Below are positions 3,950 through 48,887 of a stretch of DNA of 50,873 nucleotides, piece after piece. Below the pieces are notes generated by a model. That model searched no databases, was not told the origin of the DNA, and was given only the letters and a program-made list of their open reading frames with translations. Source of the DNA: an uncultured Gammaproteobacteria bacterium (GTDB lineage Bacteria; Patescibacteriota; Microgenomatia; Levybacterales; UBA12049). Position 1 is the stretch's first letter; every line of letters begins with the position of its first letter. Both the position numbers and the translations under genes were made by a program. The stretch is taken from NCBI GenBank assembly GCA_964372855.1, contig CAYJRY010000003.1, forward strand, positions 848 through 51,720, in the 5' to 3' direction.

Positions 3950-3950
3950 C

Positions 3951-4315: not shown

Positions 4316-4840
4316 ATGTTTTTTTGGATTTTCAATTTAGTATTAATTTTGATAATTATATTTTTGTTGATTTTACTGTCTTGGTTTTGGCCGCCTGATA
4401 GTCCATGGGCGCCATGGTGGAGAACGGATAGAAAAACTGCACGAGCTATGTGTAGATTGGCAAAGGTGGGTAAGAAAGATATTGTTTATGATCTGGGATC
4501 AGGCGATGGAACAGCTCTTATTGTTGCTGCTAAAGAATTTGGCGCTAAGTGCGCTGGAATAGAAATAGATCCGCTTCGAGCAATTCTTTCTACTTTAATA
4601 ATATATATTATTAAAGCGTACGACAAAGTGAAAATTAAGAGAGAAAACTTTTTTAATACTAACATCTCCGAGGCGACAGTTGTATTTGTTTATCTAGTCC
4701 CGAGAGCATTAAATAGACTTTTGCCAAAATTCAAAAAAGAGCTTCGCAAAGGAACGCGAATAGTTAGTTATCGATATGAAATAAACTTACCATTGGAAAA
4801 ATATGATAAAGAAAATAATATCAGGATGTATAAAATTTGA
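4316..4840 (+). CDS. Membrane-anchored class I SAM-dependent methyltransferase
   Basis: N-terminal hydrophobic segment. Motif I 'VYDLGSGDGTALIVAA' followed by 'GIEIDP' (acidic post-I). Confidence 0.7.
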   Translation: MFFWIFNLVLILIIIFLLILLSWFWPPDSPWAPWWRTDRKTARAMCRLAKVGKKDIVYDLGSGDGTALIVAAKEFGAKCAGIEIDPLRAILSTLIIYIIKAYDKVKIKRENFFNTNISEATVVFVYLVPRALNRLLPKFKKELRKGTRIVSYRYEINLPLEKYDKENNIRMYKI

Positions 4841-4844
4841 ACGT

Positions 4845-5912
4845 TTAAAATTTAAGTTTCAAAAAAAACCAACGTATTTTATCTAAGAATTTATACACCT
4901 GATAAAGAAGGAAATTTACAACAAGATCATAACTTCCGATAAATTCTACAAGTTGCGGTCCATATCCTTGCTTGAATCTATGAAATCCATACCATGGATC
5001 TTTGGGGTCAGGCGTTGGGCCGAGCGAACCCCACATATCAAATCTTTTTAATCCTAATTTTTTGCCAAATTTAATTACTTCCCACATCATAAGATTTGAT
5101 GCCATAACTTCTCTATAATGAGTTGATGATGCGCCATATGGATAATAAAGAGTGTCACCATAAACAAAGACGATCCAAGCCACAAGAGGTATTGGTTGTT
5201 GGCTATTAATTTTTGGTTGATAGTTTGCTAGAAATAAATGGGCAGTGAGTTTATCTTTATCTAAATTTCCCATCTTCGATTTTCCCTGTCTCACCATCAG
5301 GCGGGTATTTTCCATTTTCCGAGGACTTAAGGCTTCCCACATCAATCTATGATAGTTTTCTGTATGCGCATAGAAGCCCTGACGTTTAGTTGTTTCTTTG
5401 GTTAGTTTTAGATACGTTTCAAATGCATCATCAGAGTTATCCTCAACTATTTTTACACCATGTTTTAGCGCAACCCTTATATTGTATCGAGTCTTAGGAT
5501 GCATATCAGCCAGCAGCTCTTGTTCACTTTTGGTAAGATCCAAGATAAAAGTATATCTTGTAAATAACGGATGCGCTGCTGGCTGCAATTTCCAATTTCC
5601 AATTTCCAATTTCCAATCATTTTGAGATTTGGGATTTGAAATTTGAGATTTTTCGATGTTTGGTTCCAATTGAATAAAAATGCATTTTTCCTGTTTTCCA
5701 ATTTCTATTAATTTAGTCAACATTTCTTTATCTGGAAGTGGGCCTTTTGGTATATAACCGATAGTCCAAGGAAGGTGGGCCTTGCCTGCCGGCAGGCAGG
5801 GGATTTTGTGAATAGTTAATTGAAAATTCTTTTCTCTAATTACTTTAATTCCTGTTTTTTGCCTAAATTCACCCCACTGCCTTGACTGAAGAGGATGTAT
5901 ATTCATAACCAT
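4845..5912 (-). CDS. FemAB-family peptidyltransferase (peptidoglycan cross-bridge formation type)
   Basis: N-terminus 'HPLQSRQWGEFRQKTG' and C-terminal 'GASSTHYREVMASNLMMWEVIKFGKKLGLKRFDMWG..GFHRFKQGYG' match the FemAB/lipid II aminoacyl-transferase pattern. Confidence 0.75.
   Translation of the reverse strand: MVMNIHPLQSRQWGEFRQKTGIKVIREKNFQLTIHKIPCLPAGKAHLPWTIGYIPKGPLPDKEMLTKLIEIGKQEKCIFIQLEPNIEKSQISNPKSQNDWKLEIGNWKLQPAAHPLFTRYTFILDLTKSEQELLADMHPKTRYNIRVALKHGVKIVEDNSDDAFETYLKLTKETTKRQGFYAHTENYHRLMWEALSPRKMENTRLMVRQGKSKMGNLDKDKLTAHLFLANYQPKINSQQPIPLVAWIVFVYGDTLYYPYGASSTHYREVMASNLMMWEVIKFGKKLGLKRFDMWGSLGPTPDPKDPWYGFHRFKQGYGPQLVEFIGSYDLVVNFLLYQVYKFLDKIRWFFLKLKF
5586..5653. repeat. Composite double heptamer array inside the FemAB-like CDS
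   Basis: (caatttc)x4 + caatcat + tttgaga|tttggga|tttgaaa|tttgaga, with the 7-nt phase kept across the junction. Translates in frame to KSQISNPKSQNDWKLEIGNWKLQ. Confidence 0.85.
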
Positions 5913-7777: not shown

Positions 7778-8479
7778 ATGAGAAAGTTTTATATTATCGC
7801 TAATTGGAAATCGAATAAGACATTATCAGAGGCTGAAGATTGGATTGAGGGATTAAAGATTAAAGATTTAGAATTAATGAGTAAAGAAGCTATTGTTTGT
7901 CCTTCATTCACAAATCTTTCAATTCTTAAATCATTAATCATTAATCACAAATCAAATATTAAATTGGGGGCGCAGGATATTTCTCCGTTTGATGAAGGAG
8001 CCTTTACTGGAGAAGTCAATGGTAAACAAATCAAAGAATTCGCTGATTATGTGATTGTTGGCCATTCAGAAAGAAGAAATAATTTTGGAGAAGACGATGG
8101 AACAGTGAATCAAAAGTTAGATCGGGCTTTAAAATATGAACTCACTCCAATATTATGTGTTTCAAATCTTGATCAAGTTCAAAGTTCAAAATTCAAAGTT
8201 CAAAGTTACAGTTCAAAGTTCAAAATTGCGGAAATAATGTTAATAGCCTACGAGCCACTCTTTGCAATTGGGTCAGGAAATCCAGATACACCAGAGAACG
8301 CAGATAAGATGGCAAAAAATATAAAAGAAATTTTAGGTGAAATTCCAGTTTTGTATGGAGGAAGCGTTGATAAAAATAATGTCAAAAGTTTTACGACTAT
8401 GCCCAATATTGATGGAGTTTTGGTTGGAAAATCTAGTCTTGATGTCAAAGAATTTACGCAAATTATTCATAACTCGTAA
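7778..8479 (+). CDS. tpiA: Triosephosphate isomerase
   Basis: ANWKSN (Lys), GHSERR (His), AYEPLFAIGSG (Glu loop) and YGGSV. The ATG at 7778 is preferred over the TTG at 7763. Confidence 0.9.
   Translation: MRKFYIIANWKSNKTLSEAEDWIEGLKIKDLELMSKEAIVCPSFTNLSILKSLIINHKSNIKLGAQDISPFDEGAFTGEVNGKQIKEFADYVIVGHSERRNNFGEDDGTVNQKLDRALKYELTPILCVSNLDQVQSSKFKVQSYSSKFKIAEIMLIAYEPLFAIGSGNPDTPENADKMAKNIKEILGEIPVLYGGSVDKNNVKSFTTMPNIDGVLVGKSSLDVKEFTQIIHNS
8175..8224. repeat. GTTCAAA heptamer array inside tpiA
   Basis: gttcaaa|gttcaaa|attcaaa|gttcaaa|gttaca|gttcaaa|gttcaaa. Encodes VQSSKFKVQSYSSKFK between the 'ILCVS' strand and 'IAYEP'. The stretch 8175-8208 matches 20003-20036 at 33 of 34 positions. Confidence 0.9.
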
Positions 8480-9566
8480 AAAACTAATTGCGATAATCCT
8501 TCTTTTTCTTTTTGTTATCTTTTTTGGAAGGCTTATTGTTGAAGTTATAAGATGGATGCCTACTTTACTTCAATATTTTTTCCAGAAAGAAATTGCCCTA
8601 CAAAAAACAGAGGAAAGGGTAAATGTGTTGTTTTTGGGAATTGGAGGAGGCAGACATGAGGGACCTCTTCTTACAGACACTATTATCTATGCAAGTATTG
8701 ACCCAGAAAAAGAAAAAGTAACACTTATCTCAATTCCAAGAGATTTGTGGATTGAGGATTTGAGAGCAAAGATAAACACAGCATATTCTTATGGGGAGGA
8801 AAAAAGAAAAGATGGTGGAATTATTCTTACAAAAACTTTAGTTTCGAAAATTTTAAATCAGCCGGTTGATTATGTCTTAAGGATTGATTTTAATGGATTT
8901 GTAAGGGCAATTGATATGGTTGGGGGCATAGATGTTGAGGTTGAGAGGAGCTTTGAAGATCAGGAATATCCAATTTCTGGTAAAGAGACTGATACTTGTG
9001 GTTTTGAGGGTGAAGAATTTGAAAAACGTGCAACCTCCAGTGCAATATTTGAAGCATTTCCGTGTCGGTATGAACATATATCATTTCAAGAAGGCATACA
9101 GCATATGGATGGAGTTACTGCTTTAAAATTTGTCCGCTCACGTCATGCAAAAGGAGTTGAGGGGACTGATTTTGCAAGAAGCAAAAGGCAGGAGTTAGTA
9201 ATACAGGCATTTAGAAATAAAGCGTTTTCTCTAACAACCCTTCTTAATCCTGCGAAAGTTATGAGTTTGTACGATGTTTTTCAAGACTCTCTTCATACAG
9301 ATATAAAACAAAGCGAATATGATGATTTTGTGAAGCTTGCTAAAAAAATGAAAGATACGAAAATAAATAATGTGGTTTTTTTCTACACAGATGCCTATTC
9401 AAATGATCCGGGGATCTTTGTTAACCCGCCGACATCTGGAGAATTTGGTAATCAGTGGGTTTTAATACCTAGAAGAGGAGCTTCAGATTTTTCAGAAATT
9501 CAGCAGCTTGTTGATTGTGAAATAAAAATAGGCAACTGCAACATAATCCCAATCCCTACACAGTGA
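8442..9566 (+). CDS. LytR-CpsA-Psr (LCP) family cell-wall glycopolymer ligase
   Basis: TM anchor, then 'VNVLFLGIGGGRHEGPLLTDTIIYASIDPEKEKVTLISIPRDLW' and 'LKFVRSRH..DFARSKRQ'. The start was moved to the ATG at 8442; the ORF-track start at 8337 lies deep inside tpiA. Confidence 0.85.
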   Translation: MSKNLRKLFITRKKLIAIILLFLFVIFFGRLIVEVIRWMPTLLQYFFQKEIALQKTEERVNVLFLGIGGGRHEGPLLTDTIIYASIDPEKEKVTLISIPRDLWIEDLRAKINTAYSYGEEKRKDGGIILTKTLVSKILNQPVDYVLRIDFNGFVRAIDMVGGIDVEVERSFEDQEYPISGKETDTCGFEGEEFEKRATSSAIFEAFPCRYEHISFQEGIQHMDGVTALKFVRSRHAKGVEGTDFARSKRQELVIQAFRNKAFSLTTLLNPAKVMSLYDVFQDSLHTDIKQSEYDDFVKLAKKMKDTKINNVVFFYTDAYSNDPGIFVNPPTSGEFGNQWVLIPRRGASDFSEIQQLVDCEIKIGNCNIIPIPTQ

Positions 9567-10379: not shown

Positions 10380-10490
10380 TCACCAAATGCTCGCGACCTT
10401 TCAATTCACTCAGTAAAGAGTATTATTCTTCCCTTTTAATTCTTATTTAGCTAAAAATTAATGGTAGTAGTTAATTTAGAATTTGTAAAT

Positions 10491-10516
10491 ACTTTAATAA
10501 TATATATTATTAAAGT
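10491..10516. terminator. Perfect 26-bp AT-rich palindrome between convergent genes (candidate bidirectional terminator)
   Basis: actttaataatat|atattattaaagt is perfectly self-complementary. A second inverted repeat, cactctaat-N10-attagagtg, sits at 10534-10561. Confidence 0.35.
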
Positions 10517-10554: not shown

Positions 10555-13080
<2,526 letters not shown>

Positions 13081-16259: not shown

Positions 16260-18007
16260 AAAGAATTATAATTTTGGAATATCAATATTTTTGGGTGGTC
16301 ATAGACAGTAAATGATTCATCGGCGCTTTGGTCATTAATTGAGATGTTTAAAAATGGAATCGTTGGAGGATTTTCAAACTCAGCGACTTTCCTGTATCCC
16401 AATTCTCCGTTAAAAAGCCTTTGGTAATATTTATTGGCATTATGAGAGCATTTGTCTTTGGGAAGAATCCATTTTTGACAATTTTTATAAATCCTCTGAA
16501 GTGGAGTATATAAGCGGTTGCTGGCGATAATTATATAATCTGCCTCTTGAACTTTTTGGTAAATTTCTCTCTCCAAAGAAGGATCAGACATTCCGTAAAT
16601 AGGAAGTTCCAAAGTTTTATAGATAATATTTCCACCAATCGGCATCCCATCGTCCCAATGTTCGATAGCTAGAGTTTTGTCAGAGGGAATATTTTCATAA
16701 ATCCATTCCGAGGCCAAAACACGAGTGTTTGGTCTGGTATAGATATTCATGAAAGACAAAGGCCAAACTAATAAGAAAGTATAAAGTATTAAGTATAAAG
16801 TATTAAGTATAAAATTGGATTTAATGCGATGCCTTAGATATTTATATATTTGATAAATAAAAACCGCAGCAAAAATGGCTAAAAGAGGATATAGAGGAAG
16901 CAAGTAGCGCATCCAACCAACCGCGAAGTTGCCAACGATAATGAAATAGGTTAAGAAAAATAATAATATTATAATTGTTCCATTATTCCATTGTTTCATT
17001 GTTTTATAACAGACATAAAAAATTCCTAAGAAAGAAGGCATTGCGAGTATAGGGCCTAATCCCCATAAAAACATATTTTTTAATTCGTACCAATATGGAA
17101 TTTTTCCAACATATTGTAATGTATAGGGAAAAGTGAATGCATCGTATGTCATTTTTCTTTGCTCATTACTTTGTTTCCAAAATTCTTGAAAGTCAATAAG
17201 CGCGTAAGGTTGAAATATTGCAAAAGTTATAATGGTAACAACAATAATCGTTAAACCATCAATTATTAGTCTTTTCAAAAAACTTGGCACATGTGGGAAC
17301 CAAATATGAGGCTTATGTGGTTGTTTTAGGAAAATGAGTATAAAATCAACAGTAATTGCGGCAAAAATTGCAACTACAAGAGGAATAGCACTAATTTTTG
17401 TTACAAGCGACAATCCAAAACATACACCAACAATAGCTGCGTTTTTACGTGAAGGTTTTTCATAGAATCGTATAAGTTGAAAAAGTGTAAGGGTTATAAA
17501 AAATGTCAAAAGTGTATCTACAGCATAGAAATGCGCTGTTTGGATAGGAAATACTGATATTGCATAAAAAAAAGAGGCAAGAAGTGCTACTTTACTATTA
17601 AATAATTTTTTGGCAATTAGAAAAATTATAAAAATTGTTCCAATGTCTGCGATTCCTGAGATAGCTCTTCCGACCAGATTTATTTTGTCGTAAGAAAGAT
17701 ATAAAGGGTCAAAGTTTGCTAAAAAAGACGCGGTTATTTTAAGTAAATAAAGTGGAAAATTACCATAAGCAAAAAAATGAGGATTTAATGGACTTTCAGT
17801 ACTTAAAAATTCTTCAAGACTGTTGGGAAATTCAAGAGGCATTGCAAACATTACGATCGCTCGTTCATCAGGATGAAGATGGTGACCTTGATCCCAATTT
17901 AATCCATAGAATCTTAAAAAACTAGCCAAGCAAAGTATAGCAATCAAATACAGTAATTGTATTTTGATATTATTTAGAATTTGAAATTTAGTGCTTAGGA
18001 TATTCAT
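16256..18007 (-). CDS. GT-C fold membrane glycosyltransferase (GT39-like), tandem paralog 1
   Basis: 'LRFYGLNWDQGHHLHPDE' first-loop motif. Polytopic. The C-terminal 'ADYIIIASNRLY..LFNGELGYRKVAEF..ADESFTVYDHPKILIF' is shared with the next gene. Confidence 0.7.
   Translation of the reverse strand: MNILSTKFQILNNIKIQLLYLIAILCLASFLRFYGLNWDQGHHLHPDERAIVMFAMPLEFPNSLEEFLSTESPLNPHFFAYGNFPLYLLKITASFLANFDPLYLSYDKINLVGRAISGIADIGTIFIIFLIAKKLFNSKVALLASFFYAISVFPIQTAHFYAVDTLLTFFITLTLFQLIRFYEKPSRKNAAIVGVCFGLSLVTKISAIPLVVAIFAAITVDFILIFLKQPHKPHIWFPHVPSFLKRLIIDGLTIIVVTIITFAIFQPYALIDFQEFWKQSNEQRKMTYDAFTFPYTLQYVGKIPYWYELKNMFLWGLGPILAMPSFLGIFYVCYKTMKQWNNGTIIILLFFLTYFIIVGNFAVGWMRYLLPLYPLLAIFAAVFIYQIYKYLRHRIKSNFILNTLYLILYTFLLVWPLSFMNIYTRPNTRVLASEWIYENIPSDKTLAIEHWDDGMPIGGNIIYKTLELPIYGMSDPSLEREIYQKVQEADYIIIASNRLYTPLQRIYKNCQKWILPKDKCSHNANKYYQRLFNGELGYRKVAEFENPPTIPFLNISINDQSADESFTVYDHPKILIFQNYNSL
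16779..16813. repeat. AGTATWA x5 heptamer array inside the GT-C CDS
   Basis: agtataa|agtatta|agtataa|agtatta|agtataa. Encodes part of a TM-like stretch, ILNTLYLILYTFLL. Confidence 0.8.
17973..18001. repeat. Heptamer array forming the first ~11 codons of the GT-C CDS
   Basis: tttagaa|tttgaaa|tttagtg|cttagga. Contains the core ATTTAGTGCTTAGGAT (17986-18001), related to 4285 and 19783. Confidence 0.7.
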
Positions 18008-19831: not shown

Positions 19832-21106
19832 TATTAATTTTGCTACTTTTTCTCCTAACTCAACTGCGTAGTTGGTTCCCCTATCCCAAGGGTAGACTTG
19901 TTGTATATTAGCAAGGTAGACATTCTTAAGTGGTGTTTCAAATGGAGGAATAATTTTTGAATAATTGAGCGGGATTATAGGCTGAGCAAAAGGAACCTTA
20001 AAAAGTTCAAAGTTCAAAATTAAAAGTTCAAAGTTAGGATTTATCCTTTTTAGATAAGGGGTATAGACTTTTAAGAGTTCGGGAGCACTCATTTTCATAT
20101 ACGGATGGTCATAGGGAAGATAATTACCCAAATATACAATATGTTCATTATCGTAATATTTCTTATCCATAAAGTTAGTGTGTTCGACAATTGCCATTAT
20201 AGGCGAATCTTTATCGCAGATATTTAGCCAGTAAGTCCCATCTTTGAGGAATGGTTGTTTTAAACGAAGAATTAAATTGATTGCGCCTATACCCTTCAAA
20301 TTCATAAGTTTATTTTTGTAAACTTGCGGAAGATGTGGTGCAATTTTTAGGAAGTGAAATGAAGGAAGCGTTGCAATAACTTTGTCATAATTTTCCATTT
20401 TCCACCTTCCATTTTCCATTTTATACTTTATTTGTACACCAATTTCTTGCGCATCTATTTCTTCTACTTGAGTATTAAAAAAAACTTTTCCTCCTAATTT
20501 CTCGATTTTCTTAACAAGGATATTTGCGAACTCCAAAAAACCTCCTTTCGGATAACTTAAAGTTGACGTTCTTTTATTTATTCTCGCCCAAAACCATGCA
20601 AGGGAAATATCATCTTTATAATTTCCAAATTTTTTGGTAAATAGAGGATTCCATATCATTTCATAGCTACTTTTACCCATTATTTTTGGAAGAAAATCAG
20701 TAGCCTTAATATTTTCTAATGTCTGCCAAAAAGGGTTGTATTTCAAGGAAGCTAGAGCAAATGCCATACGAACACGATCAAAAATAGGCAATTTCGGAAA
20801 AGCCAGTAATGATTTTACCGAGTCTAGCTGATAAATTAAATTATTAATTAAAGTGGATGTTTTTGGACGTTTTGTAATGACTTCAAAATTTAGTTCTTTC
20901 GCTAAATTGAGCGTAGAATAGTCATTTGTAAACCAGTGATGATAATGTTTTTCCAAAGACCAATTCCATTTGGGTAATTTAAAGCCAACAGCCAATCCAC
21001 CAGGATTTTCATCTTTTTCAAATAAAGTTAAAGTATTGCCTAATTTTGATAGGTAGTAGGCTGCCGATAGTCCGGTAAAACCAGCACCAATTATTGCAAT
21101 TTTCAT
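19817..21106 (-). CDS. FAD/NAD(P)-binding oxidoreductase (amine-oxidase/PPOX/phytoene-desaturase-like fold)
   Basis: 'MKIAIIGAGFTGLSAAYYLSKLGNTLTLFEKDENPGGLA' is a dinucleotide-binding GxGxxG...E...GG motif. The length (429 aa) is typical of the family. Confidence 0.8.
   Translation of the reverse strand: MKIAIIGAGFTGLSAAYYLSKLGNTLTLFEKDENPGGLAVGFKLPKWNWSLEKHYHHWFTNDYSTLNLAKELNFEVITKRPKTSTLINNLIYQLDSVKSLLAFPKLPIFDRVRMAFALASLKYNPFWQTLENIKATDFLPKIMGKSSYEMIWNPLFTKKFGNYKDDISLAWFWARINKRTSTLSYPKGGFLEFANILVKKIEKLGGKVFFNTQVEEIDAQEIGVQIKYKMENGRWKMENYDKVIATLPSFHFLKIAPHLPQVYKNKLMNLKGIGAINLILRLKQPFLKDGTYWLNICDKDSPIMAIVEHTNFMDKKYYDNEHIVYLGNYLPYDHPYMKMSAPELLKVYTPYLKRINPNFELLILNFELFKVPFAQPIIPLNYSKIIPPFETPLKNVYLANIQQVYPWDRGTNYAVELGEKVAKLILTNS
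20003..20038. repeat. GTTCAAA heptamer array inside the FAD-oxidoreductase CDS
   Basis: agttcaa|agttcaa|aattaaa|agttcaa|agttagg. Matches the tpiA array at 33 of 34 positions on the same DNA strand, but here the gene is on the opposite strand, so it encodes NFELLILNFELF. Confidence 0.9.
20391..20418. repeat. TTTTCCA heptamer array inside the FAD-oxidoreductase CDS
   Basis: ttttcca|ttttcca|ccttcca|ttttcca. Encodes KMENGRWKMEN, which compares with 11143-11170. Confidence 0.85.
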
Positions 21107-25596: not shown

Positions 25597-27345
25597 ATGA
25601 ACCAAAATAATATTAGAAATTTTGCAATTATTGCGCATGTAGATCATGGTAAATCAACTTTAGCAGATAGACTTTTGGAATTGACGAATACTATTCCAAG
25701 AGAAAAATTAAGAGAGCAATTTTTGGACCAAAATCCAATTAGCAGACGTCGTGGAATTACTATTAAACTTGCGCCAGTTAGAATGAACTATACACTAAAC
25801 GCTACACCTTATATCCTAAATCTTATCGATACTCCTGGGCATGTTGATTTTTCTTACGAAGTTTCCCGAACTCTTGCTTGCTGTGAGGGAGCAATACTTT
25901 TGGTAGATGCAACCCAAGGAGTTCAAGCTCAAACTGTTGCTCATTTCAGAGAAGCAAAAAGGGAGAAACTAACAATAATTCCAGCAATTAATAAAATAGA
26001 TTTAGCAAGTGCTAATGTAGACTTGGTGATTAGGCAGCTTGGTGAAACTTTTGGATTTAAGAAAGAAGAGATCCTCCTGATCTCTGCCAAAACTGGGGAA
26101 AATGTGGATTTTTTACTTTCAGAAATCGTTAGAAAAATACCTGCACCTTCTGGTCAAAAAGAAAAACCACTTCGATCTCTCATATTCGATGCAGTATATG
26201 ATGAGTTTAGGGGTGTTGTTGCCTATGTTAGGGTGGTTGATGGTGAAGTCAAAAAAGGAGAAAGGGTCAGATTTTACCAAAACAACATAGAGTCTGAAGT
26301 TACTGACCTTGGATTTTTCACTCCGCACTTAGCGTCATCAAGTATATTATTATCTGGAGAAATAGGATATATAATAACTGGTATAAAAGATATCAAGAAA
26401 GTTAGAGTTGGTGACACTATAACAATATCAAATATCAAAAATCAAATATCAAATATAGAACCACTTCCAGGGTATAAGATTCCAAAGCCAATGGTTTTTT
26501 TTGGAATGTACCCTAGGAATACGGAAAACTATTTAAACCTTAAAGAATCTTTGACCAAATTAACCCTTAACGACACAGCCTTAACCTATAAAGAAGAATA
26601 CTCTTCGTATTTAGGAAGTGGATTTCGAGTAGGATTTTTGGGGCTTTTGCATGCGGAAATTATAAAAGACAGGATAAAACAAGAATTTAACTTGGAAATT
26701 TTACTTGCTATGCCCCAAGTTTTATATGAAAGGATAGGAGATAAAATACTAGAACCATATATGAAGCTGAACGTATATACCCCAAAGCAATATTTGGGAG
26801 ATATTATGAATATATGTCAAAATAAAAAAGGCCAGTTATTAGATATAGCTTATTATGAAAGTTTTGTTCGTATAATTTATGACATGCCTTTTTCTATGTT
26901 TATACGAGGACTTTCATCAGACCTTAAGTCAGCCTCAAATGGATTTGCAAGTATCGATTACGAGCTTACCGACTATAAAGAAGCAGATCTTGTAAGAACT
27001 GAAATAAAAGTGAATGATGTGGTAATTGATGTATTCTCCGAACTAGTTTATAAAGATGAGGCACAATTTGTCGCAAGGGCAAAAACAGAAAAACTAAAAC
27101 ATACTCTTCCTCGTCAGCAATTTAGACAGATTATTCAGGGAGTGGTAGATGGAAATATTGTTGCCAGATCAGAAATTCCTCCTTTTAGAAAAGATGTTTT
27201 ACAAAAAATGAGTGGCGGAGATAGGAGAAGAAAAGATAAACTTCTGGAGGCTCAAAAGAAAGGTAAATCTCGGTTAATTACTCATGCCAAAATCTCAATT
27301 CCCCAAGAAGCACTAATGACAATGATTGAAAAAAATAAAATATAA
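25597..27345 (+). CDS. lepA: Translation elongation factor 4 (LepA)
   Basis: 'NIRNFAIIAHVDHGKSTLADRLLE', 'DTPGHVDF' and 'NKIDL' form the G domain. The LepA-specific C-terminal domain includes 'LYERIGDKILEP'. Confidence 0.95.
   Translation: MNQNNIRNFAIIAHVDHGKSTLADRLLELTNTIPREKLREQFLDQNPISRRRGITIKLAPVRMNYTLNATPYILNLIDTPGHVDFSYEVSRTLACCEGAILLVDATQGVQAQTVAHFREAKREKLTIIPAINKIDLASANVDLVIRQLGETFGFKKEEILLISAKTGENVDFLLSEIVRKIPAPSGQKEKPLRSLIFDAVYDEFRGVVAYVRVVDGEVKKGERVRFYQNNIESEVTDLGFFTPHLASSSILLSGEIGYIITGIKDIKKVRVGDTITISNIKNQISNIEPLPGYKIPKPMVFFGMYPRNTENYLNLKESLTKLTLNDTALTYKEEYSSYLGSGFRVGFLGLLHAEIIKDRIKQEFNLEILLAMPQVLYERIGDKILEPYMKLNVYTPKQYLGDIMNICQNKKGQLLDIAYYESFVRIIYDMPFSMFIRGLSSDLKSASNGFASIDYELTDYKEADLVRTEIKVNDVVIDVFSELVYKDEAQFVARAKTEKLKHTLPRQQFRQIIQGVVDGNIVARSEIPPFRKDVLQKMSGGDRRRKDKLLEAQKKGKSRLITHAKISIPQEALMTMIEKNKI
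26425..26459. repeat. ATATCAA heptamer array inside lepA
   Basis: atatcaa|atatcaa|aaatcaa|atatcaa|atataga. Encodes ISNIKNQISNIE between GDTIT and LPGYK. The 21-mer at 26432-26452 is identical to 47919-47939. Confidence 0.9.
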
Positions 27346-27414: not shown

Positions 27415-29445
27415 ATGAAGTTTTCTACTATTTTACTTCTAATACTCTTTCTTCCAGCAATACTTTTTACTACTACCTTTTCAATACCCTCTTCTGTTCT
27501 AGCTCAAACAGTTGAAATTGTAACTTTTCCTGATCCAAATCTTGAGACCGCAGTAAGAGAAGCCTTAAATAAACCCACTGGAGATATAACGAGTGAAGAT
27601 ATGGCTAGTTTGACCCTATTGGATGCGTCAAATAGAGATATTGTCAACCTAACTGGTTTGGAATATGCAATAAACCTTGACCGCCTCACGCTTTGGCAAA
27701 ACCAAATATCCGATCTTTCACCACTTGCTGGATTAACGAAACTAACCAAACTAAAACTCTACCGTAACCAAATAGTTGATATTTCACCCATTGCCAATTT
27801 GACGAACCTTAACGGCTTGTACCTCGAGCAGAATCAAATAGTAGATCTCTCGCCACTTGCTGGCTTAACCGGAATCACGGAAATGGACCTCGCGGAAAAT
27901 CGAATATCTGACGTTTCGCCTTTGGCTAACCTGATTAATTTAGGACACTTGGAAATTTCTAGAAATCAGATAACTGACATCTCTGCATTCGCCGCTCTCC
28001 CATTAAATTGGCTGGAAGTTCATGAGAATCAAATAGCTGATATCTCGCCTTTGGCAAATAATATGGCATTAGGACTGGGGGATTTTCTGAACTTACAACT
28101 CAACCCACTAAATGAACAGGCATATAATATTCATATTCCAGAACTTCAACAAAGAGGTGTTGAGGTATTGTTTTCTCCTCCTGTTGGAGGAGGGTGTATT
28201 CCTTTAAATTTTGGGTCAACAACCTCGGACGCAATCAGCACACTAGGAGAGGAAGATTGTTACTCCTTTAATGGAGTAATCGGTGAAGCATTCTTGGCAA
28301 GGATGGTTAGGACATCCGGCACCATGCAGCCTGAAATACGGCTATATCGACCGGATGGTAGCACAGTTCTATGCTCCAAGTCGGGTACTTCGCTCGCAGA
28401 TATGCTGTGCCTTCTGAAGAACACTGGCACGCATACCTTACGTCTGGGCGACCTAAACGATGATGAGACTGGAGACTACAATCTTTATTTCCAACGCACT
28501 AATAATCCTGTAAATGCTACTCCACTGAATTTGAGTGAAACCATTTCAGGGACAGTGAGTGCTTTGGCTGAAATGAAAACTTACACCTTCACAGGAGCGA
28601 TAAATGATCGCATTGTGATAAATACAGTCAAAACTTCTGGACTTTTTCAACCTGAAGTTCGGGTTTATAGCCAAAATGGAAAACTTCTTTGTTATAAAAT
28701 CGGCAGTCTTATATCTCATCTATTGTGCACAGTGAAAATTAGCGGCACTCACACTGTTTTGGCTGGCGATAACGGCGGCAATGAGACTGGCGATTACAAC
28801 CTTTATATCCAGCGCACAAACAGCCCCATGATCGCTACTCCACTGAATTTGAGCGATACTGTTTCAGGAGATATCACTGTTGCTTCCCAAATGAACACCT
28901 ACACCTTTACAGGCGCAATAGGCGACAGGGTAGTAACAAGAATGGTCAAAACATCAGGTGCGCTTGCACCTTACGTGAGAGTCTACCGCCCAGATGGCAC
29001 ACTAAAATGTTCTAAGAGTGGCACTCTTATTTCTGACACGCTTTGCACTTTGGATAAAGATGGCGTTCATACGGTGTTATTAAGCGACGGTGGATCTGCC
29101 ACTGGGAGCTATACATTCTACATTCAGCGCACCAACAATCCAGTTAATGCAACGCCTATCAACCCAGGCGAGACCATAGCTTTAGAAATTAGTATGACCT
29201 CTGAAATGGATTCTTTCACATTTTCTGGTGTAGCAGGTACAAGCGTTGTGGTAACAATGACTGCCACCTCTTCAGTCTTCCAACCAGAGATGAGAGTTTA
29301 TCGTCCAGATGGAACATTACGATGCTCAAAGAAAGGCACCTCACCTATTACTCTAACTTGTTTACTTGACGTAACCGGCACTCACACTATCTTAGCCGGC
29401 GACATGAATGGCGAACAAACAGGTAGCTACACAATTACCTTTTAG
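27415..29445 (+). CDS. Secreted leucine-rich-repeat protein with four ~105-aa PPC-like beta-sandwich repeats
   Basis: Signal peptide (MKFSTILLLILFLPAILF..VLA). About eight 22-aa LRRs (LxxLxLxxNQIxDISPLAxLTxL). Four repeats start near nt 28195, 28519, 28837 and 29152, each with two conserved Cys and ending TG(D/S)Y(N/T)(L/F)Y(F/I)QRTN. The ATG at 27415 is preferred. Confidence 0.75.
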   Translation: MKFSTILLLILFLPAILFTTTFSIPSSVLAQTVEIVTFPDPNLETAVREALNKPTGDITSEDMASLTLLDASNRDIVNLTGLEYAINLDRLTLWQNQISDLSPLAGLTKLTKLKLYRNQIVDISPIANLTNLNGLYLEQNQIVDLSPLAGLTGITEMDLAENRISDVSPLANLINLGHLEISRNQITDISAFAALPLNWLEVHENQIADISPLANNMALGLGDFLNLQLNPLNEQAYNIHIPELQQRGVEVLFSPPVGGGCIPLNFGSTTSDAISTLGEEDCYSFNGVIGEAFLARMVRTSGTMQPEIRLYRPDGSTVLCSKSGTSLADMLCLLKNTGTHTLRLGDLNDDETGDYNLYFQRTNNPVNATPLNLSETISGTVSALAEMKTYTFTGAINDRIVINTVKTSGLFQPEVRVYSQNGKLLCYKIGSLISHLLCTVKISGTHTVLAGDNGGNETGDYNLYIQRTNSPMIATPLNLSDTVSGDITVASQMNTYTFTGAIGDRVVTRMVKTSGALAPYVRVYRPDGTLKCSKSGTLISDTLCTLDKDGVHTVLLSDGGSATGSYTFYIQRTNNPVNATPINPGETIALEISMTSEMDSFTFSGVAGTSVVVTMTATSSVFQPEMRVYRPDGTLRCSKKGTSPITLTCLLDVTGTHTILAGDMNGEQTGSYTITF

Positions 29446-29866: not shown

Positions 29867-29870
<4 letters not shown>
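29565..29870 (+). CDS. groES: Co-chaperonin GroES
   Basis: 'KPLFDNVFIKPLEAESKTKSGIILPDS' contains the mobile loop. 101 aa, directly upstream of groEL. Confidence 0.95.
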
Positions 29871-31587
<1,717 letters not shown>

Positions 31588-31589
31588 AA

Positions 31590-31617
31590 ATATCAAAAAT
31601 TAAATATCAAATATCAA
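31590..31617. repeat. ATATCAA-type heptamer array starting 3 nt after the groEL stop
   Basis: atatcaa|aaattaa|atatcaa|atatcaa. Confidence 0.8.
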
Positions 31618-31620
31618 AAA

Positions 31621-31645
31621 TTTTCCCCGAAAGGGGATTTTTAAT
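31621..31645. terminator. Short GC hairpin with a T-tract between convergent genes (groEL terminator, possibly bidirectional)
   Basis: ttttCCCCgaaaGGGGattttt. It overlaps the stop codon of the minus-strand gene 31641-32555. Confidence 0.55.
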
Positions 31646-32555
31646 TTGAGGGAGTTTTTATTTTCTTTACTCTATAGCGTTTATATAGAATATAAATTAC
31701 AATAATGGCTGCAACTAAAGGAGAATAAACTGCGAGCCAGATTAGAGCTTCGGCGCCAATTCGCAAGGTATTTAAGAGACTTCTTACAGCGTGTTTGAAA
31801 ACAACATCGGGTCTAAATACTTTATCTGGAGTATATGGAAGTGCTAGCTCATCTGTTGAGAGATAAATAGTAATTTTTGTAAGCTTCGCGTTTTTCTCAA
31901 TTGCAAGTTTCTGTCCAACAAACGCATCAATCTGTGACTGGATATTTATAATTTCTCGATTAACAGTTAAAATATCCGCAACATCAGTGGCTTTATCCAA
32001 AATTTCCTCAAACTTAGCTTTGGTTTTTTGAAGAGTAGATAATCTTGCTTCAATATCAGTGTATTCCTCTGTTACATCAGTTCCCACCAAATTTTCACTC
32101 GCTACTTTAACAGCCAGACTTCTGAAATAATAAAGGGCTTGGTCTAATTTATCTGTAGGTACTCTTACAGTTATACTTGCGAAAGGAGATTCAGTTGGTC
32201 TTGTATAAGATGTATAAACCAAATATCCGCCATTACTTTTTACATATTCAAGTATTTGATCTCCAATTTTTCGAACATCCTCAACAAGAAGTGAGATATT
32301 AGATTCTTGAATTACAATTCGATTTCCCGAAAAATCATTCGATTCTTGAGTTTTTAATTGAGAGAATTCAGGTACCCCACCTTCGCCCATGTTAGGCAAT
32401 TCTTGTCTACTGTAAGGTCCATAGTCAATTGAAGGAGTAGTAAATAAAGGTCTTTGTGGGAAAAGTAAAATATTGTCTTTGAATAAAAGGTAGATAATTA
32501 CTAAGACAAGAAGAGAAATTAATTTATGTGTTTTAACCCAATTAAATAACGCCAT
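31641..32555 (-). CDS. DUF4349-like membrane-anchored protein
   Basis: N-terminal and C-terminal TM segments flank 'SLLVEDVRK..VRVPTDKLDQALYYFRSLA.V.SENLVGTDVTEEYTDIEARL..L...KAKFEEIL', which follows the DUF4349 pattern. Confidence 0.65.
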   Translation of the reverse strand: MALFNWVKTHKLISLLVLVIIYLLFKDNILLFPQRPLFTTPSIDYGPYSRQELPNMGEGGVPEFSQLKTQESNDFSGNRIVIQESNISLLVEDVRKIGDQILEYVKSNGGYLVYTSYTRPTESPFASITVRVPTDKLDQALYYFRSLAVKVASENLVGTDVTEEYTDIEARLSTLQKTKAKFEEILDKATDVADILTVNREIINIQSQIDAFVGQKLAIEKNAKLTKITIYLSTDELALPYTPDKVFRPDVVFKHAVRSLLNTLRIGAEALIWLAVYSPLVAAIIVIYILYKRYRVKKIKTPSN

Positions 32556-44552: not shown

Positions 44553-45281
44553 ATGAATGATTTAACACAAAGACAAGTGGAAATTTTAAGATCCCTTATT
44601 GAAGAGTATATTGCAACAGCTGAGCCTGTTGGATCAGAAACACTTGAGAAAAAATACAGCTTATCCTCATCCCCTGCTACTATTCGTAATGAAATGGTGG
44701 CTCTAACAAAAAAAGGCTATCTTCGAAAAACACATACTTCTTCAGGGCGAGCTCCAACACCAACGGGAATGAAGTTTTATGTAAAAACTCTTATGAAAGA
44801 AAAAGATCTTTCTGTAACTGAAGAAACAGCTGTAAAAGAAAGTTTGTGGGATTTTAGAAATAAAGAAGTAAAATTTTTACGAGAGACCGCTAAATCATTG
44901 GCCAATAAAACCAAAGCATTAGCGGTAATATCTACAATGGATGGGAATGTATATTGCTCAGGCTATGCAAATATATTGGATATGCCTGAGTTTTTTGATA
45001 TAGATGTAACAAAAAATTTACTCTCCTCTCTTGATGAATTTGAGAATTGCAGAAAATTTTTTGAGAATATTGAGGCAAATGATGTACAAGTACTTTTGGG
45101 TGATGAATTAGGCCCAACTCTTAGAGGCCCATACGGATTTGTTTTTACTCGCTATCAAACTCCCATGAAGCTAACAGGTGAGGTAGGAGTTTTGGGGCCA
45201 AGCCGTCTTAATTACACTCAAATTGTCCCTACAGTTAGATATTTTGGAGATTTGATAGAAGAAATTGCTTCGGGATGGTAA
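44553..45281 (+). CDS. hrcA: Heat-inducible transcription repressor HrcA (short, 242 aa)
   Basis: 'LTQRQVEILRSLIEEYIATAEPVGSETLEKKY..SPATIRNEMVALTKKGYL.K.HTSSGRAPT..G' is the HrcA wHTH signature. It sits at the head of grpE-dnaK-dnaJ. Confidence 0.85.
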   Translation: MNDLTQRQVEILRSLIEEYIATAEPVGSETLEKKYSLSSSPATIRNEMVALTKKGYLRKTHTSSGRAPTPTGMKFYVKTLMKEKDLSVTEETAVKESLWDFRNKEVKFLRETAKSLANKTKALAVISTMDGNVYCSGYANILDMPEFFDIDVTKNLLSSLDEFENCRKFFENIEANDVQVLLGDELGPTLRGPYGFVFTRYQTPMKLTGEVGVLGPSRLNYTQIVPTVRYFGDLIEEIASGW

Positions 45282-45324
45282 AAGTAGTATTAAATATTAA
45301 AAATAAAATACAAAAATAACAAAT

Positions 45325-45888
45325 ATGGATAAAAACGATACAAAAAGCAAAAACAAGGATTCTATAAAGCAGAATGAAGACAATGGTGATCGTAAGGCTG
45401 AAAAAGAAAATAGCGAACTTTTAAAACGAAGAATAGAAGAATTAGAGAATCAGAATAAGCGGTTATTGGCAGATTATAGAAATTTAGAAAAAAGAGTTGA
45501 GACGGAGAGAAGAGATTGGATATTAAAAGCCAACAAACAGCTTATATTGCATCTTTTACCAGTTTTATATACACTAATATTTGCGGCTAAAACTAGTAAA
45601 GATGAAGGAATAAAATTAGCCGTAAAACAATTTGAAGATATTTTAACTCAGGAAGGTCTTGAAAAGATTGAAACAAAAGGAAAACAGTTCGATCCAAGAT
45701 TAATGAGGGCGATCGATACCAAGAATGGTCGTGAAGGAGAAGTTCTAGAAGAAGTATATCCAGGTTATATACACAGGGTTGACAAATCCTTATTAAAAGA
45801 AGCAGATGTAATAGTTGGGAAAGAAAAAATAGAGAATGAAGTAGAAGAGAAAGCTAAAAAAGAATTGCAAAAAGGAGACTATATGTGA
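45325..45888 (+). CDS. grpE: Nucleotide exchange factor GrpE
   Basis: Coiled-coil 'LLADYRNLEKRVETER' and 'FDPRLMRAI...PGY' in the C-terminal beta-domain. Confidence 0.9.
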   Translation: MDKNDTKSKNKDSIKQNEDNGDRKAEKENSELLKRRIEELENQNKRLLADYRNLEKRVETERRDWILKANKQLILHLLPVLYTLIFAAKTSKDEGIKLAVKQFEDILTQEGLEKIETKGKQFDPRLMRAIDTKNGREGEVLEEVYPGYIHRVDKSLLKEADVIVGKEKIENEVEEKAKKELQKGDYM

Positions 45889-45895
45889 CATGATA

Positions 45896-45967
45896 ATGTC
45901 ATCCTGAACGAAGTCGAAGGATCCCATGAATAAATAAAAAGATTCTTCGTTGCACTCAGAATGACAT
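45896..45967. repeat. GTCAT-type hairpin element in the grpE-dnaK spacer
   Basis: atgtcatcctgaacgaagtcgaaggatc...gattcttcgttgcactcagaatgacat. The termini atgtcat/atgacat are perfectly complementary. Same family as 12385-12450. Confidence 0.8.
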
Positions 45968-45981
45968 AAGAATAGGAATAT

Positions 45982-47913
45982 ATGGGAAAAATTATTGGAA
46001 TAGATTTAGGTACTACCAATTCATGCGTTGCGGTAATGGAGGGTGGAGCTCCCAAAGTCATCCATTCACTAGAGGGAAGGAATGTAATTCCTTCAGTTGT
46101 TGATCCTATAAGCCATATAGTTGGTGACGTTGCAAAACGCCAGTTAGTTCTAAAGCCTAAGCGAACAATTTTCTCTATAAAGCGATTGATGGGTCGTAAG
46201 CTTACTGATCCGTCGGTTCAGTTTGACATGAAATGGCTTCCTTATACGATCAAATCAGGCCGCGATGGAATGGCAGTTGTTGAGGTTGAAGGAAGAACAT
46301 TTACTCCACAGGAGATTTCAGCAATGATTCTTCAGAAAATAAAAGGCGATGCTGAGAGTTATTTGGGCGGAAAAGTTACACAAGCAGTCATTACAGTTCC
46401 TGCGTATTTTGACGATTCTCAGCGTCAAGCTACCAAACAAGCTGGGGAAATTGCAGGACTTGAGGTTTTAAGAATTATTAATGAGCCCACAGCATCAGCT
46501 TTAGCTTATGGACTTGACAAGAAAAATGCCCATACAGTTGCTATATATGATTTGGGTGGAGGAACTTTTGATATCTCTGTTCTTGAGTTAGGTGAAGGAG
46601 TATACGAGGTAAAATCAACAAATGGAGATACACATTTAGGCGGAGATGACTTTGATCAGGTAATTATAAATCATATTGCAGAAGAGTTCAAAAAGCAAAA
46701 TGGTATCGACCTAAGAAAAGACCCTCAAGCTTTACAAAGACTTCGAGAATCTGCGGAAAAAGCAAAAATTGAATTGTCAAGTTCTCAGCAAGCAGAAATC
46801 AATCAGCCATTTATAACTCAAGGAAAAGAAGGTCCTCTACATCTTACAATGACTTTAACTCGTGCCAACCTTGAGAAATTAGTGGATCAGCTTATTCAAA
46901 AAACACTTAAACCAGTTGAGCAAGCATTAAAAGATGCGAAAATAACAGCGTCAGACATTGATGAGGTCGTATTGGTTGGCGGAATGACTAGAATGCCAAA
47001 GGTGATTGAGGTTGTTTCAAAGTTTTTTGGCAAAGAACCCAATAAATCAGTTAATCCAGATGAGGTTGTCGCAGTTGGCGCAGCAGTCCAAGCAGGCGTA
47101 TTAGGAGGAGAGGTAAAAGACGTGTTGCTATTGGATGTGACTCCTTTGACTTTGGGAATTGAAACATTAGGCGGAGTTTCAACACCTTTAATTTCTAAAA
47201 ACACAACAATCCCAACTTCTAAATCTCAAGTATTCTCAACTGCGGGAGATAACCAAACCCAAGTTGAGATAAATGTTTTGCAAGGTGAGCGTCCAATGGC
47301 AATTGATAACAAAAGCCTAGGAAGGTTCATATTAAGTGGTATTCCGCCAGCGCCACGTGGTATTCCTCAAATTGAAGTAACTTTTGATATTGACGCAAAT
47401 GGGATTTTAAATGTGAAAGCAAAAGATAAAGCAACTGGGAAAGAACAAAGCATCAAGATTACTGGTTCAACAGGTCTTTCTAAAGATGAAGTTGAAAGAA
47501 TGACCAAAGAGGCAGAAGCTCATGCCGCTGAGGATCAACAGAAGAAAGAAAAAATTGAAGCAAGAAATGCAGCAGATTCATTAATTTTTACCGCAGAAAA
47601 ATCAATTAAAGATGCGGGAGATAAGATTGACATAGGTGCTAAGAAAGAAGTTGAGGAAAAGATTTCTTCTCTCAAATCCATTCTTGATAGTGGTACAAAA
47701 GAAGATTTAGAGGCAAAGACAAAAGATCTGTCAGATAGTCTTCAAAAAATTGGTCAGGCAATGTATGGCTCATCGCAACAGACAACTCCCAACAACCAAC
47801 AAACAACAGGAGATAGTCAACAAGGCCCGGGAACTGGTGAACAAAAAACTGAAGGAAAGGGAGAAAAGAAAAAAGACAAAGACGAGCCGATTGAGGGCGA
47901 AGTAGTGAACTAA
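45982..47913 (+). CDS. dnaK: Molecular chaperone DnaK (Hsp70)
   Basis: '[13 protein letters not shown]', 'DLGGGTFD' and '[10 protein letters not shown]'. 643 aa. Confidence 0.97.
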
Positions 47914-47918
47914 ATTAA

Positions 47919-47939
47919 ATATCAAAAATCAAATATCAA
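47919..47939. repeat. ATATCAA-type heptamer array 6 nt after the dnaK stop
   Basis: atatcaa|aaatcaa|atatcaa, identical to lepA nt 26432-26452. Confidence 0.85.
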
Positions 47940-47943
47940 AATG

Positions 47944-47971
47944 ACCCCGCGGAGTTTTAACGAAGTGGGGT
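47944..47971 (+). terminator. Hairpin after dnaK (weak terminator or attenuator)
   Basis: accccgc-N14-gtggggt is a 7-bp stem with one G.T pair, followed by a short T-rich run (atttagt). A TATAAT at 47976-47981 lies 9 nt upstream of the dnaJ ATG (47991). Confidence 0.4.
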
Positions 47972-47990
47972 ATTTAGTATAATATGAATT

Positions 47991-48887
47991 ATGGAAAATA
48001 AAGACTACTATCAAATTTTAGGGGTTTCAAAAACTGCTTCTGTAGATGAGATAAAAAGAGCTTATAGAAAGCTAGCTCTTCAATATCATCCGGATCGAAA
48101 CAAATCGAAAGAAGCTGAGGGTAAGTTTAAAGAGGTGACAAAAGCTTATGAAGTTTTGTCTGATCCTCAAAAAAGACAGGCTTATGACCAGTTTGGCCAT
48201 GCTGCTTTCGAGCAAGGTCAAGGACCATTTGGTGCGGGTGGACCTTTTGGAGGATTTGGAGGGACAAGAACAGGACGATACGGTCCATTTACCTATACAT
48301 ACTCAACTTCCGGAGGAGAGGGGGGATTTGATTTCGGCGGGTTTTCTGATCCATTTGAAATTTTTGAGCAGTTTTTTGGTGGAGCCTCCCCATTTGGTAC
48401 TCGTCAGAGACGGCCTACTTATTCTCTAGGTATTGATTTTATGGAGGCTGTTCATGGAGCAACAAAAACTGTCACAATCGATGGTAAGCGTCAAACTATA
48501 AAAATTCCAGCCGGTGTTGATGATGGATCAAGAATTCGTTTTGGAGAATATGATGTTGTTCTTGAAGTAACTGCCGACAGAAGATTTCGCCGAGAAGGGG
48601 TAGATATAGTAACAGAGCAAGAGATTTCTTTTTCTCAAGCAGCACTGGGGGATGAGGTGAATGTTGAGACAATTGATGGTGAAGTAAAAGTTCGGATTCC
48701 ATCTGGAACGCAACCAGATAGTCTAATAAGACTTAGGCAAAAAGGAGTGCCCCATATTCATGGCAGCGGACGGGGAGATCATTATGTGCGGATAAAAGTC
48801 GTCGTCCCAAAACACCTCACCCGCCGCCAGAAAGATTTACTCAGAGAGTTTCAAGAAGAAGGCTCGTCAAGAAAAGGATGGTTTTAG
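47991..48887 (+). CDS. dnaJ: J-domain co-chaperone, DnaJ/CbpA type without the zinc-finger domain
   Basis: 'DYYQILGV...[13 protein letters not shown]' (HPD) and a G/F-rich region, then the C-terminal substrate-binding domains. No CxxCxGxG repeats are present. Confidence 0.85.

Follow-up and report, generated by a model that had tools for sequence, protein, structure and literature searches.

A 50,873-nucleotide stretch of DNA from an uncultured Candidatus (Ca.) Levybacteria bacterium (assembly GCA_964372855.1, contig CAYJRY010000003.1, positions 848 to 51,720; hereafter the window) contains a lepA (EF4) gene (25597..27345, + strand, 582 aa) whose reading frame runs intact through a tandem array of 7-nt units. 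With a probability of about 0.6, this lepA segment is an in-frame heptanucleotide simple sequence repeat (SSR), one of the genome-wide 7-nt arrays that are typical of a low-GC Ca. Levybacteria subclade. The arrays that follow dnaK and groEL in the same window are best explained as independent members of one (AWATCAA)n family, which fill unstructured A-rich spacer before a hairpin. The first-pass annotation of this DNA had interpreted the lepA segment as a terminator-associated module, shared with the 3' ends of the two chaperone genes and captured in frame. This interpretation is partly supported; the segment is better viewed as one of the heptanucleotide repeat tracts that populate the whole genome.

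Period-7 arrays in the window and in the LepA linker

A tolerant scan of the window, which has a GC content of 33.6%, detected 19 arrays of period 7, against 0.16 in shuffled sequence and 0-2 at periods 5, 6 and 8-11. When only exact repeats were counted, period 7 gave four perfect runs with three or more copies, and the other periods between 4 and 15 gave none. Genes hold 15 of the 19 arrays, all in frame, in sequence encoding FemAB, triosephosphate isomerase (TIM), DUF2298, PMT_2, amine oxidase, LepA and DnaK proteins. The remaining four are intergenic (after groEL, after dnaK, and in the groES-groEL and hrcA-grpE spacers). The window is 95% coding, and array density per kb is about fivefold greater in the non-coding 5%. 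Both here and in relatives, the units are AT-rich and of dozens of kinds.

The lepA array (26424..26460, + strand) consists of about five AATATCA units, the third being AAATCAA. Tandem Repeats Finder reports it as 4.7 copies of AATATCA with 92% matches (26424-26456), together with related arrays at 31588-31618 and 47912-47941. The array encodes ISNIKNQISNIE (aa 277-288), between GDTIT and LPGYK. Pfam matches on the window LepA (EFTU_D2, 206-276; EFG_III, 295-368) and an alignment with the Aquifex LepA structure 2ywe, relative to which the window protein has four additional residues at this site, place the array peptide in the linker between domains II and III.

An alignment of 67 LepA genes was used to compare this linker across lineages. 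The best match to the window LepA is 79% identical, and LepA relatives assign the window to Ca. Levybacteria, within the Candidate Phyla Radiation (CPR, or Patescibacteria). All outgroups and one Levybacteria group (GC 39-46%) have a bare linker of 8-10 aa (e.g. EQNSTVEP) with no DNA periodicity. The lower-GC Levybacteria group carries an array at the orthologous site, and its linkers of 11-31 aa are encoded by period-7 DNA of varied units. The initial remark that this segment is short and variable in other LepA proteins was correct, with 8-10 aa in every non-Levybacteria LepA examined. The repeat is real and non-random, and within LepA it is lineage-specific. Peptides at the site differ completely from one relative to another, and the 7-nt periodicity of the DNA is kept.

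The unit occupying the linker varies from lineage to lineage. It is AATATCA in the window and in relatives L011 and L048, ATTTCAA in L002, AAATTCA in L006 and L023, AAGTTCA in L026, GAAGATG in L009 and L045, AATGGCA in L027, GAGTTCR in L004, and of the AACAATT type in L001 and L003. Several unit types can be connected by changes of one base at a time (AAGTTCA, AAATTCA, AATTTCA, AATATCA). The arrays of the window and L002 can be aligned unit by unit, with the same unit position differing in five of five units. Three relatives (L023, L025 and L026) keep an ancestral-type loop (e.g. AEDEEGNRVEP) and carry exactly 14 additional residues (42 nt, six units) directly after GDTI; L029 shows the same combination with a longer addition, giving a 27-aa loop. 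GC-rich palindromic sequence lies in frame beside the heptamer units in the linkers of L008, L028 and L037. Folding of this palindrome is most pronounced in L037 (z -3.9, 12-bp stem), weaker in L008 (z -1.8, 8-bp stem, CCCCGATTCAATCGGGG) and not above shuffled sequence in L028 (z -0.6). A pure (TACTTAC)x11 array also starts 1 nt past the lepA stop codon of L023 (7753-7833).

The lepA array of the window has no stem-loop and no predicted structure (z +0.77), and for this reason a terminator role inside lepA is not supported. It also has no inverted partner, and no target-site duplication flanks its boundaries. The idea of a captured terminator module therefore did not hold, the array being one of 19 of its kind, with 15 in unrelated genes and many different units among them. 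In LepA, an array would have replaced and lengthened the normal 8-10-aa linker, and the resulting extension to 13 aa is probably functionally neutral.

Reading frames leave their mark on the repeats. Because 7 and 3 have no common factor, translation of an array runs through all three phases of its unit. The unit ATATCAA is stop-free in every phase, and its reverse complement contains a stop. Perfect repetition in four of the in-gene arrays would introduce six in-frame stops, and variant units remove all six. A perfect lepA array would read ISNIKYQ; the AAATCAA variant unit turns the tyrosine into asparagine.

Comparable arrays occupy the other genes. The FemAB-family gene has two adjoining in-frame arrays, (ATTGGAA)n and (AAATCTC)n (5575..5651, - strand), and the TIM gene three tracts (7848-7877, 7917-7964 and 8175-8213, + strand). 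Five lie in the gene for the DUF2298 membrane protein (11139-11182, 11355-11392, 11729-11763, 11763-11796 and 11961-11990, - strand), one of ACTTTAT/ACTTAAT units in the PMT_2 glycosyltransferase gene (16770..16815, - strand) and two in the amine-oxidase gene (19999-20035 and 20390-20431, - strand). A weak CCAACAA tract encodes part of the DnaK C-terminal tail (47783..47808, + strand).

Orthologous proteins provide further evidence that sites persist as units change. L207, a 20.7-kb syntenic locus of a relative, carries arrays at the same FemAB, TIM, DUF2298 and amine-oxidase sites, built of other units. Relative to L207, the window also has clean extra insertions of 14 aa (42 nt) at the second amine-oxidase array (20390-20431) and of 7 aa in DUF2298. 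The TIM arrays fall in surface helices, where they replace helix segments with little net insertion. Across 52 TIM homologs, peptides of the VQSSKFK, IQNSKFK and SKLK types make up the segment after PILCVS, which is about 7-25 residues long. The underlying TIM repeat is (AAGTTCA)n in the window and L206 and (AAATTCA)n in L207, with the same interruption; most units of the window and L207 differ by G against A, and the layout of the array is kept.

Several other features of the window were recorded. A nickel superoxide dismutase (Ni-SOD) gene, present also in L207, overlaps an S26/S24-type peptidase gene (3446-4250), which probably encodes the maturation protease of the Ni-SOD. A 26-nt AT palindrome, TACTTTAATAATATATATTATTAAAG, occurs identically at 4591-4616, in a DOT1-like open reading frame (ORF), and at 10490-10515, between genes. 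The LRR/PPC-domain gene just 3' of lepA contains an 88-nt internal direct repeat (28463-28550 and 28781-28868, 80% identity). An Rfam 15 scan of the whole window gave no match at the gathering score, and no tRNA or tmRNA was found in it. Three Logan contigs from the source sample ERR3478686 (L203, L204 and L205) are 100% identical to the window, and four of their six ends fall inside heptamer arrays (at 16786, 26428-26452 and 47916). The arrays therefore break short-read assembly, which could reflect either repeated k-mers or length heterogeneity.

The shared 21-mer and the chaperone loci

The 21-mer ATATCAAAAATCAAATATCAA occurs exactly at 26432-26452, within lepA, and at 47919-47939, beginning 6 nt after the end of the dnaK stop codon at 47913. 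A copy with one mismatch (31590-31610) begins 3 nt past the groEL stop codon, which ends at 31587, and lies within the array at 31588-31621. The first-pass annotation had reported the identical pair and the related groEL array, and both are confirmed. Chance frequency was its own test of the idea; with up to three mismatches allowed, the 51-kb window holds five matches against 0.03 expected.

The 21-mer itself is a segment, three units long, of an (AWATCAA)n tandem array with period 7, and the lepA, dnaK and groEL copies have only 21-30 nt of such repeat units in common. By a rough, uncomputed estimate, two (AWATCAA)n arrays would match in their three-unit T/A pattern about one quarter to one third of the time. 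As both copies are of this family and such a match is expected often, exact identity over 21 nt adds little beyond family membership, which is possibly reinforced by occasional copying between arrays.

Downstream of groEL (29947-31587), an array of AAATATC/AAAAATT units (31588..31621, + strand) extends from the stop codon to a hairpin with a T-run, CCCCGAAAGGGG (31623-31637). This hairpin is terminator-like on both strands and lies between groEL and a convergent DUF4349 gene (31641-32555, minus strand). It was flagged in a scan for promoters and terminators, whose counts over the window were not clearly above the shuffled expectation. The dnaK gene (45982-47913) is part of an hrcA-grpE-dnaK-dnaJ operon (44553-48887) with a short HrcA (242 aa). 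The array in the dnaK-dnaJ spacer (47912..47940, + strand) comprises the units AAATTAA, ATATCAA, AAATCAA and ATATCAA and a final A. It is followed by a GC hairpin, ACCCCGCG...GUGGGGU (47944-47971, + strand; centroid -13.4 kcal/mol, z -2.1), with only a weak T-run, TATTTAGTAT, before the dnaJ ATG at 47991.

Hairpins with a C4/G4 core do follow both chaperone arrays, as had been noted. The proposal that array and hairpin form a reusable 3'-end module stands in part. The succession of an array and a GC hairpin recurs between genes, both in many metagenome contigs and at the groEL 3' end of many relatives, where the stop codon is followed by a heptamer-periodic tract of 30-45 nt with lineage-specific units and then by a hairpin. 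The groEL and dnaK hairpins of the window, however, are not copies of one another and have nothing in common beyond the C4/G4 core.

Arrays also occur upstream of the chaperone genes. The groES-groEL spacer contains a TAGCGTT-type array with an inverted copy (29868..29946, + strand); the two form the arms of a long hairpin (29870-29938; -30.2 kcal/mol, z -3.3). Arrays recur in this spacer among relatives, and the TAGCGTT-type unit is found in that of the distant relative L033. The hrcA-grpE spacer holds an A-rich period-7 array (45286..45315, + strand). A search for the CIRCE inverted repeat (TTAGCACTC-N9-GAGTGCTAA) found no match within three mismatches in the window, even though hrcA is present; the arrays are thus not HrcA operators. 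On the minus strand, the (TTGATAT)n sequences at 26424-26452 and 31589-31617 contain weak sigma-70-like -35/-10 pairs (TTGATA-17-GATATT), and from this motif match they could act as antisense promoters.

Distribution and origin of the arrays

The density of arrays separates the Levybacteria subclade from other lineages. Under a threshold slightly stricter than that of the tolerant window scan, the Levybacteria with a LepA array, window included, have 48 period-7 arrays in 354 kb, 37 of them in long open frames. Other Levybacteria have 9 in 210 kb (3 in long open frames), and 38 non-Levybacteria loci, which are lower still in GC (mean 34%), have 2 in 440 kb (both in long open frames). Since AT-rich loci outside Levybacteria are nearly free of arrays, AT-richness alone is not the source.

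The 21-mer is more widespread. It occurs exactly in at least 120 metagenome contigs and two viral contigs, with GC fractions of 0.25-0.57. Among the matches listed, roughly 40% lie in long open frames, one of which is another lepA (L084, identical to L048); judged by eye from flanking translations, others look like genes for a glycosyltransferase, a sugar kinase and a glutamyl-tRNA synthetase. In the listed contigs, 735 kb in all, period 7 accounts for 253 arrays and other periods for 0-14. On a rough classification, many of them show palindromes in which an A-rich array, an optional GC hairpin and an inverted T-rich array succeed one another. In L134, a 124-nt module of this array/GC hairpin/inverted-array type is found twice, 8 kb apart (122-245 and 8423-8546), at 94% identity.

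Further forms were also recorded. L134 has a third, weaker copy of its module at 3624. L169 contains a long, apparently pure (AWATCAA)n array continuous for about 200 nt, and in L193 one contig end consists of (ATAAYCA)n over 171 nt (1-171). Six contigs of GC 40-48% (L101, L119, L139, L144, L149 and L154) share a conserved AT-rich palindromic heptamer element of about 100 nt, ...ATATCAAAATGACAATGCAAAATTCAAAAATTTTGGATTTTGATTTGTAATTTTGATTTTTGCATTTTGATTTTTGA, which may represent a family resembling miniature inverted-repeat transposable elements.

Units are shared between arrays more often than composition would predict. In a hand count on a small sample, sharing per array pair is about 2-3% within the window and about 1% between the window and other Levybacteria, against a composition-only expectation of about 0.1-0.2% (about 0.0013 per pair). 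These small-sample values point less to homogenisation specific to one genome than to a vocabulary preferred across the clade.

The favored explanation is a process at the DNA level that would keep creating and homogenising arrays in a 7-nt register, most likely through slipped-strand or template-switch errors during replication. Arrays would colonise weakly constrained sequence, such as protein linkers, surface helices, the spacers between stop codons and terminators, and other intergenic spacers. Within genes, a selective filter would let only orientations and variants without in-frame stops survive and would mainly retain length changes that preserve the frame, making 21 nt (three units) the natural quantum. 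Amino-acid acceptability would further shape the variant units.

A number of observations weigh against this account. The LepA loops of the window and L048 are identical at 36 of 39 nucleotides, although their flanks are only 55% identical and third codon positions only 33%; relatives closer than L048 have unrelated LepA arrays, and array types are patchy on the LepA tree. Within the window, TIM 8175-8208 and amine oxidase 20003-20036 are identical at 33 of 34 positions on opposite coding strands, sharing a variant unit that is synonymous in TIM, and 11141-11172 matches 20389-20420 at 30 of 32. The first of these pairs hints at copying between loci. The DUF2298 gene carries, twice in frame (11355-11480 and 11955-12075), a palindromic module of about 110 nt made of A-rich arrays, a spacer and inverted T-rich arrays. 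Its copies agree at 46 of 50 positions over array plus 20 nt of flank, fold with z -3.1 (first) and z -1.9 (second), and have array-rich peptides at both positions in the L207 ortholog. This module pair does not fit neatly. Furthermore, the indels between orthologs are not all multiples of 21 nt, and unit changes that keep the layout, as in TIM and in the LepA arrays of the window and L002, are unlike random expansion and contraction. Slippage by one unit within a coding sequence causes a frameshift, and by itself it therefore hardly explains how arrays arise in genes like that for TIM.

Direct signs of slippage are also few. An all-against-all comparison of the fetched loci gave one informative near-identical pair, L194 (4981-5026) and L202 (11751-11810), whose contigs are 99.6% identical over 6.4 kb and whose sole indel is 14 nt, or two ATTTGTC units. 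This is the single direct sign of unit-wise slippage found, and it comes from contigs unrelated to the window. Exact-protein look-ups for strain variants of the window genome returned only contigs of the same sample. Clusters at 90% identity for seven window proteins contained no full-length relative, six being singletons and the seventh accompanied by two 42-aa fragments. Convergence on a small stop-free AT-rich vocabulary, combined with peptide selection, can explain part of the near-identities across loci.

In the alternative that survives best, very small mobile or copy-and-paste elements, some of them with a GC hairpin at the centre and an inverted partner array, would account for the arrays. 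They would be comparable to Rickettsia palindromic elements, cyanobacterial small dispersed repeats or the pneumococcal SPRITE, would spread between loci and could land in frame within genes, with one family at lepA, dnaK and groEL. We consider it unlikely, but it deserves attention. The near-identical arrays at unrelated loci, in one case on opposite coding strands, the repeated DUF2298 module and the paired L134 module have the appearance of such elements, as does the presence of arrays at some orthologous LepA sites and their absence from others, whereas the lepA array has no inverted partner, hairpin or target-site duplication. Patchy array types on the LepA tree would follow from mobility, as would the GC-rich palindromes in the L008, L028 and L037 linkers, that of L028 folding no better than shuffled sequence; the single-base unit steps at orthologous sites fit evolution in place. 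The 21-mer contigs, many palindromic, and the conserved version of about 100 nt likewise suggest dispersal. In the window, however, the lepA, dnaK and groEL copies have nothing in common beyond repeat units, the two chaperone hairpins are unlike, and none of the ORFs was identified as a gene for a transposase, recombinase or reverse transcriptase. The units number dozens of kinds rather than a few defined element sequences.

A broader proposal, which we also judge unlikely, is that a dedicated and previously undescribed copy-and-paste or templated mechanism makes and spreads heptamer arrays, alone or as array/GC hairpin/inverted array, in CPR and other uncultured lineages. Such a mechanism would write 7-nt-periodic patches in either orientation, including in frame in LepA and TIM. 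If true, it would account for near-identical arrays at unrelated loci, for the same 21- to 28-mer in distant lineages and for unit changes that preserve architecture.

A functional cis element is very unlikely. In this case (AWATCAA)n would link lepA, dnaK and groEL, either by binding an oligomeric protein that recognises RNA or DNA or by acting as a premature 3'-end or pause signal. Ring proteins that read triplets spaced by 7 nt exist (HutP). One unit family does occur at the three loci, two of them chaperone 3' ends, but the same kind of array is present in many unrelated genes. Array position is conserved after groEL and in the groES-groEL spacer, whereas the orientation of arrays relative to groEL differs among relatives. 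L003 has AACAATT in both its LepA and groEL 3' arrays, just as the two window arrays share a family; yet both vary among relatives, and their units match each other in only about two of eight genomes. The absence of structure or a terminator at the lepA site, and of any Rfam match or CIRCE in the window, also argues against such an element.

It is more improbable still that the repetitive DNA arose because the protein was selected to have a low-complexity, heptad-like linker of ISNIKNQ repeats. Three 7-nt units do give a peptide period of seven residues, the TIM arrays lie in surface helices, the T-to-A variant in lepA substitutes asparagine for tyrosine, and similar peptides recur in LepA and TIM orthologs. 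At the level of DNA, however, units are identical across the three codon phases, including synonymous positions, and the same units are found in untranslated spacers and on both coding strands, which disfavors an origin at the protein level. Peptides as different as ISNIKNQ, AEDGRWK, MANGKWQ and INNLQLT occupy one site in relatives, with the 7-nt DNA periodicity kept.

The 33.6% GC content and the array-broken Logan contigs of the source sample could suggest that the similarity arose by chance in AT-rich sequence or is an artefact of assembly. This reading is effectively refuted by the excess of 21-mer matches, the specificity for period 7, the LepA alignment and the clade densities, with lower-GC loci nearly free of arrays and orthologous sites occupied, frames intact, in independent assemblies of many projects.

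Comparison with known repeat systems

Heptanucleotide SSRs are a recognized feature of prokaryotic genomes, and a literature search for such repeats in CPR, Patescibacteria or Levybacteria found no report. Among the long SSRs of prokaryotes, heptamers are the commonest; slippage related to the polymerase footprint has been proposed as their origin, and units with a length that is a multiple of three are expected in genes (passages of PMC4692102 and PMC4679880 that summarise Mrazek 2007). Tandem heptamers dominate the intergenic repeats of many prokaryotes, with 'no clear clue' on their function (Mori et al. 2018, PMC6344855). The Levybacteria arrays resemble these repeats in having few to several tandem 7-nt units, in the strong excess of period 7 over neighboring periods, and in varying in sequence and length among relatives at the same intergenic positions, for which a slippage origin has been proposed. 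They differ in that published repeats are mainly intergenic, whereas about 80% here lie in frame in ordinary housekeeping genes. They differ also in their many AT-rich heptamers and in keeping their sites, though not their units, throughout a phylum-level clade.

The units of the cyanobacterial short tandemly repeated repetitive (STRR) sequences are CCCCAGT, TTGGTCA and CAACAGT. These few, G/C-containing units are mostly intergenic, in contrast to the dozens of AT-rich units in a Ca. Levybacteria host. Small dispersed repeats, which are hairpin elements, were reportedly described by Elhai in 2008 as nested in STRR heptamer arrays, sometimes inside genes. Such nesting is comparable to the L008 and L037 LepA linkers, in which a hairpin lies beside heptamers. 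As here, STRR arrays are spread genome-wide (Mazel 1990, as cited in a passage of PMC4692102).

The TAACTGA repeats of marine Beggiatoaceae, cyanobacteria and Bacteroidetes (MacGregor 2015, PMC4679880) similarly show the same heptamer array across distant phyla. They are found beside gene ends and starts, are limited by stops in their in-gene orientation, and give a 7-residue peptide repeat when translated. They have a single favored unit, mostly just upstream of starts, whereas many units occur here, mostly in genes or between stop and terminator. The GGGAATC/GGGGAYT repeats of Xanthomonas and Nostoc (Rehm 2015, PMC4692102) likewise lie between the same genes with varying length and sequence, some as inverted pairs; unlike the present arrays, they are G-rich, quadruplex-forming and intergenic.

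Rickettsia palindromic elements provide a parallel for in-frame insertion, as short selfish repeats that lie in unrelated conserved genes at positions tolerated by the fold, and the pneumococcal SPRITE shows that terminator-like modules can be dispersed (PMC10969869). The Rickettsia elements are about 150 bp long with a defined sequence, whereas the tandem array in lepA spans 37 nt and lacks an inverted partner. Unlike them, the three copies in the window have no element-wide homology.

The Levybacteria subclade represents an extreme and informative form of heptamer repeats, in which the reading frames of conserved housekeeping genes are invaded and array sites outlast long divergence as their units change. 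Selection is visible in the loss of stops and in insertions of 21 and 42 nt that preserve the frame, found among the length differences. It offers a natural system for separating the generating mechanism (slippage, copying between loci or mobile elements) from the selective filters. Marker proteins such as LepA and TIM gain lineage-specific insertions from the arrays, with consequences for CPR alignments and phylogenies, and terminators come to be surrounded by periodic tracts rich in A or U. Heptanucleotide repeats as such are known; the mass in-frame occupation of conserved genes, and the persistence of sites with turnover of units across a CPR clade, are new as far as we found.

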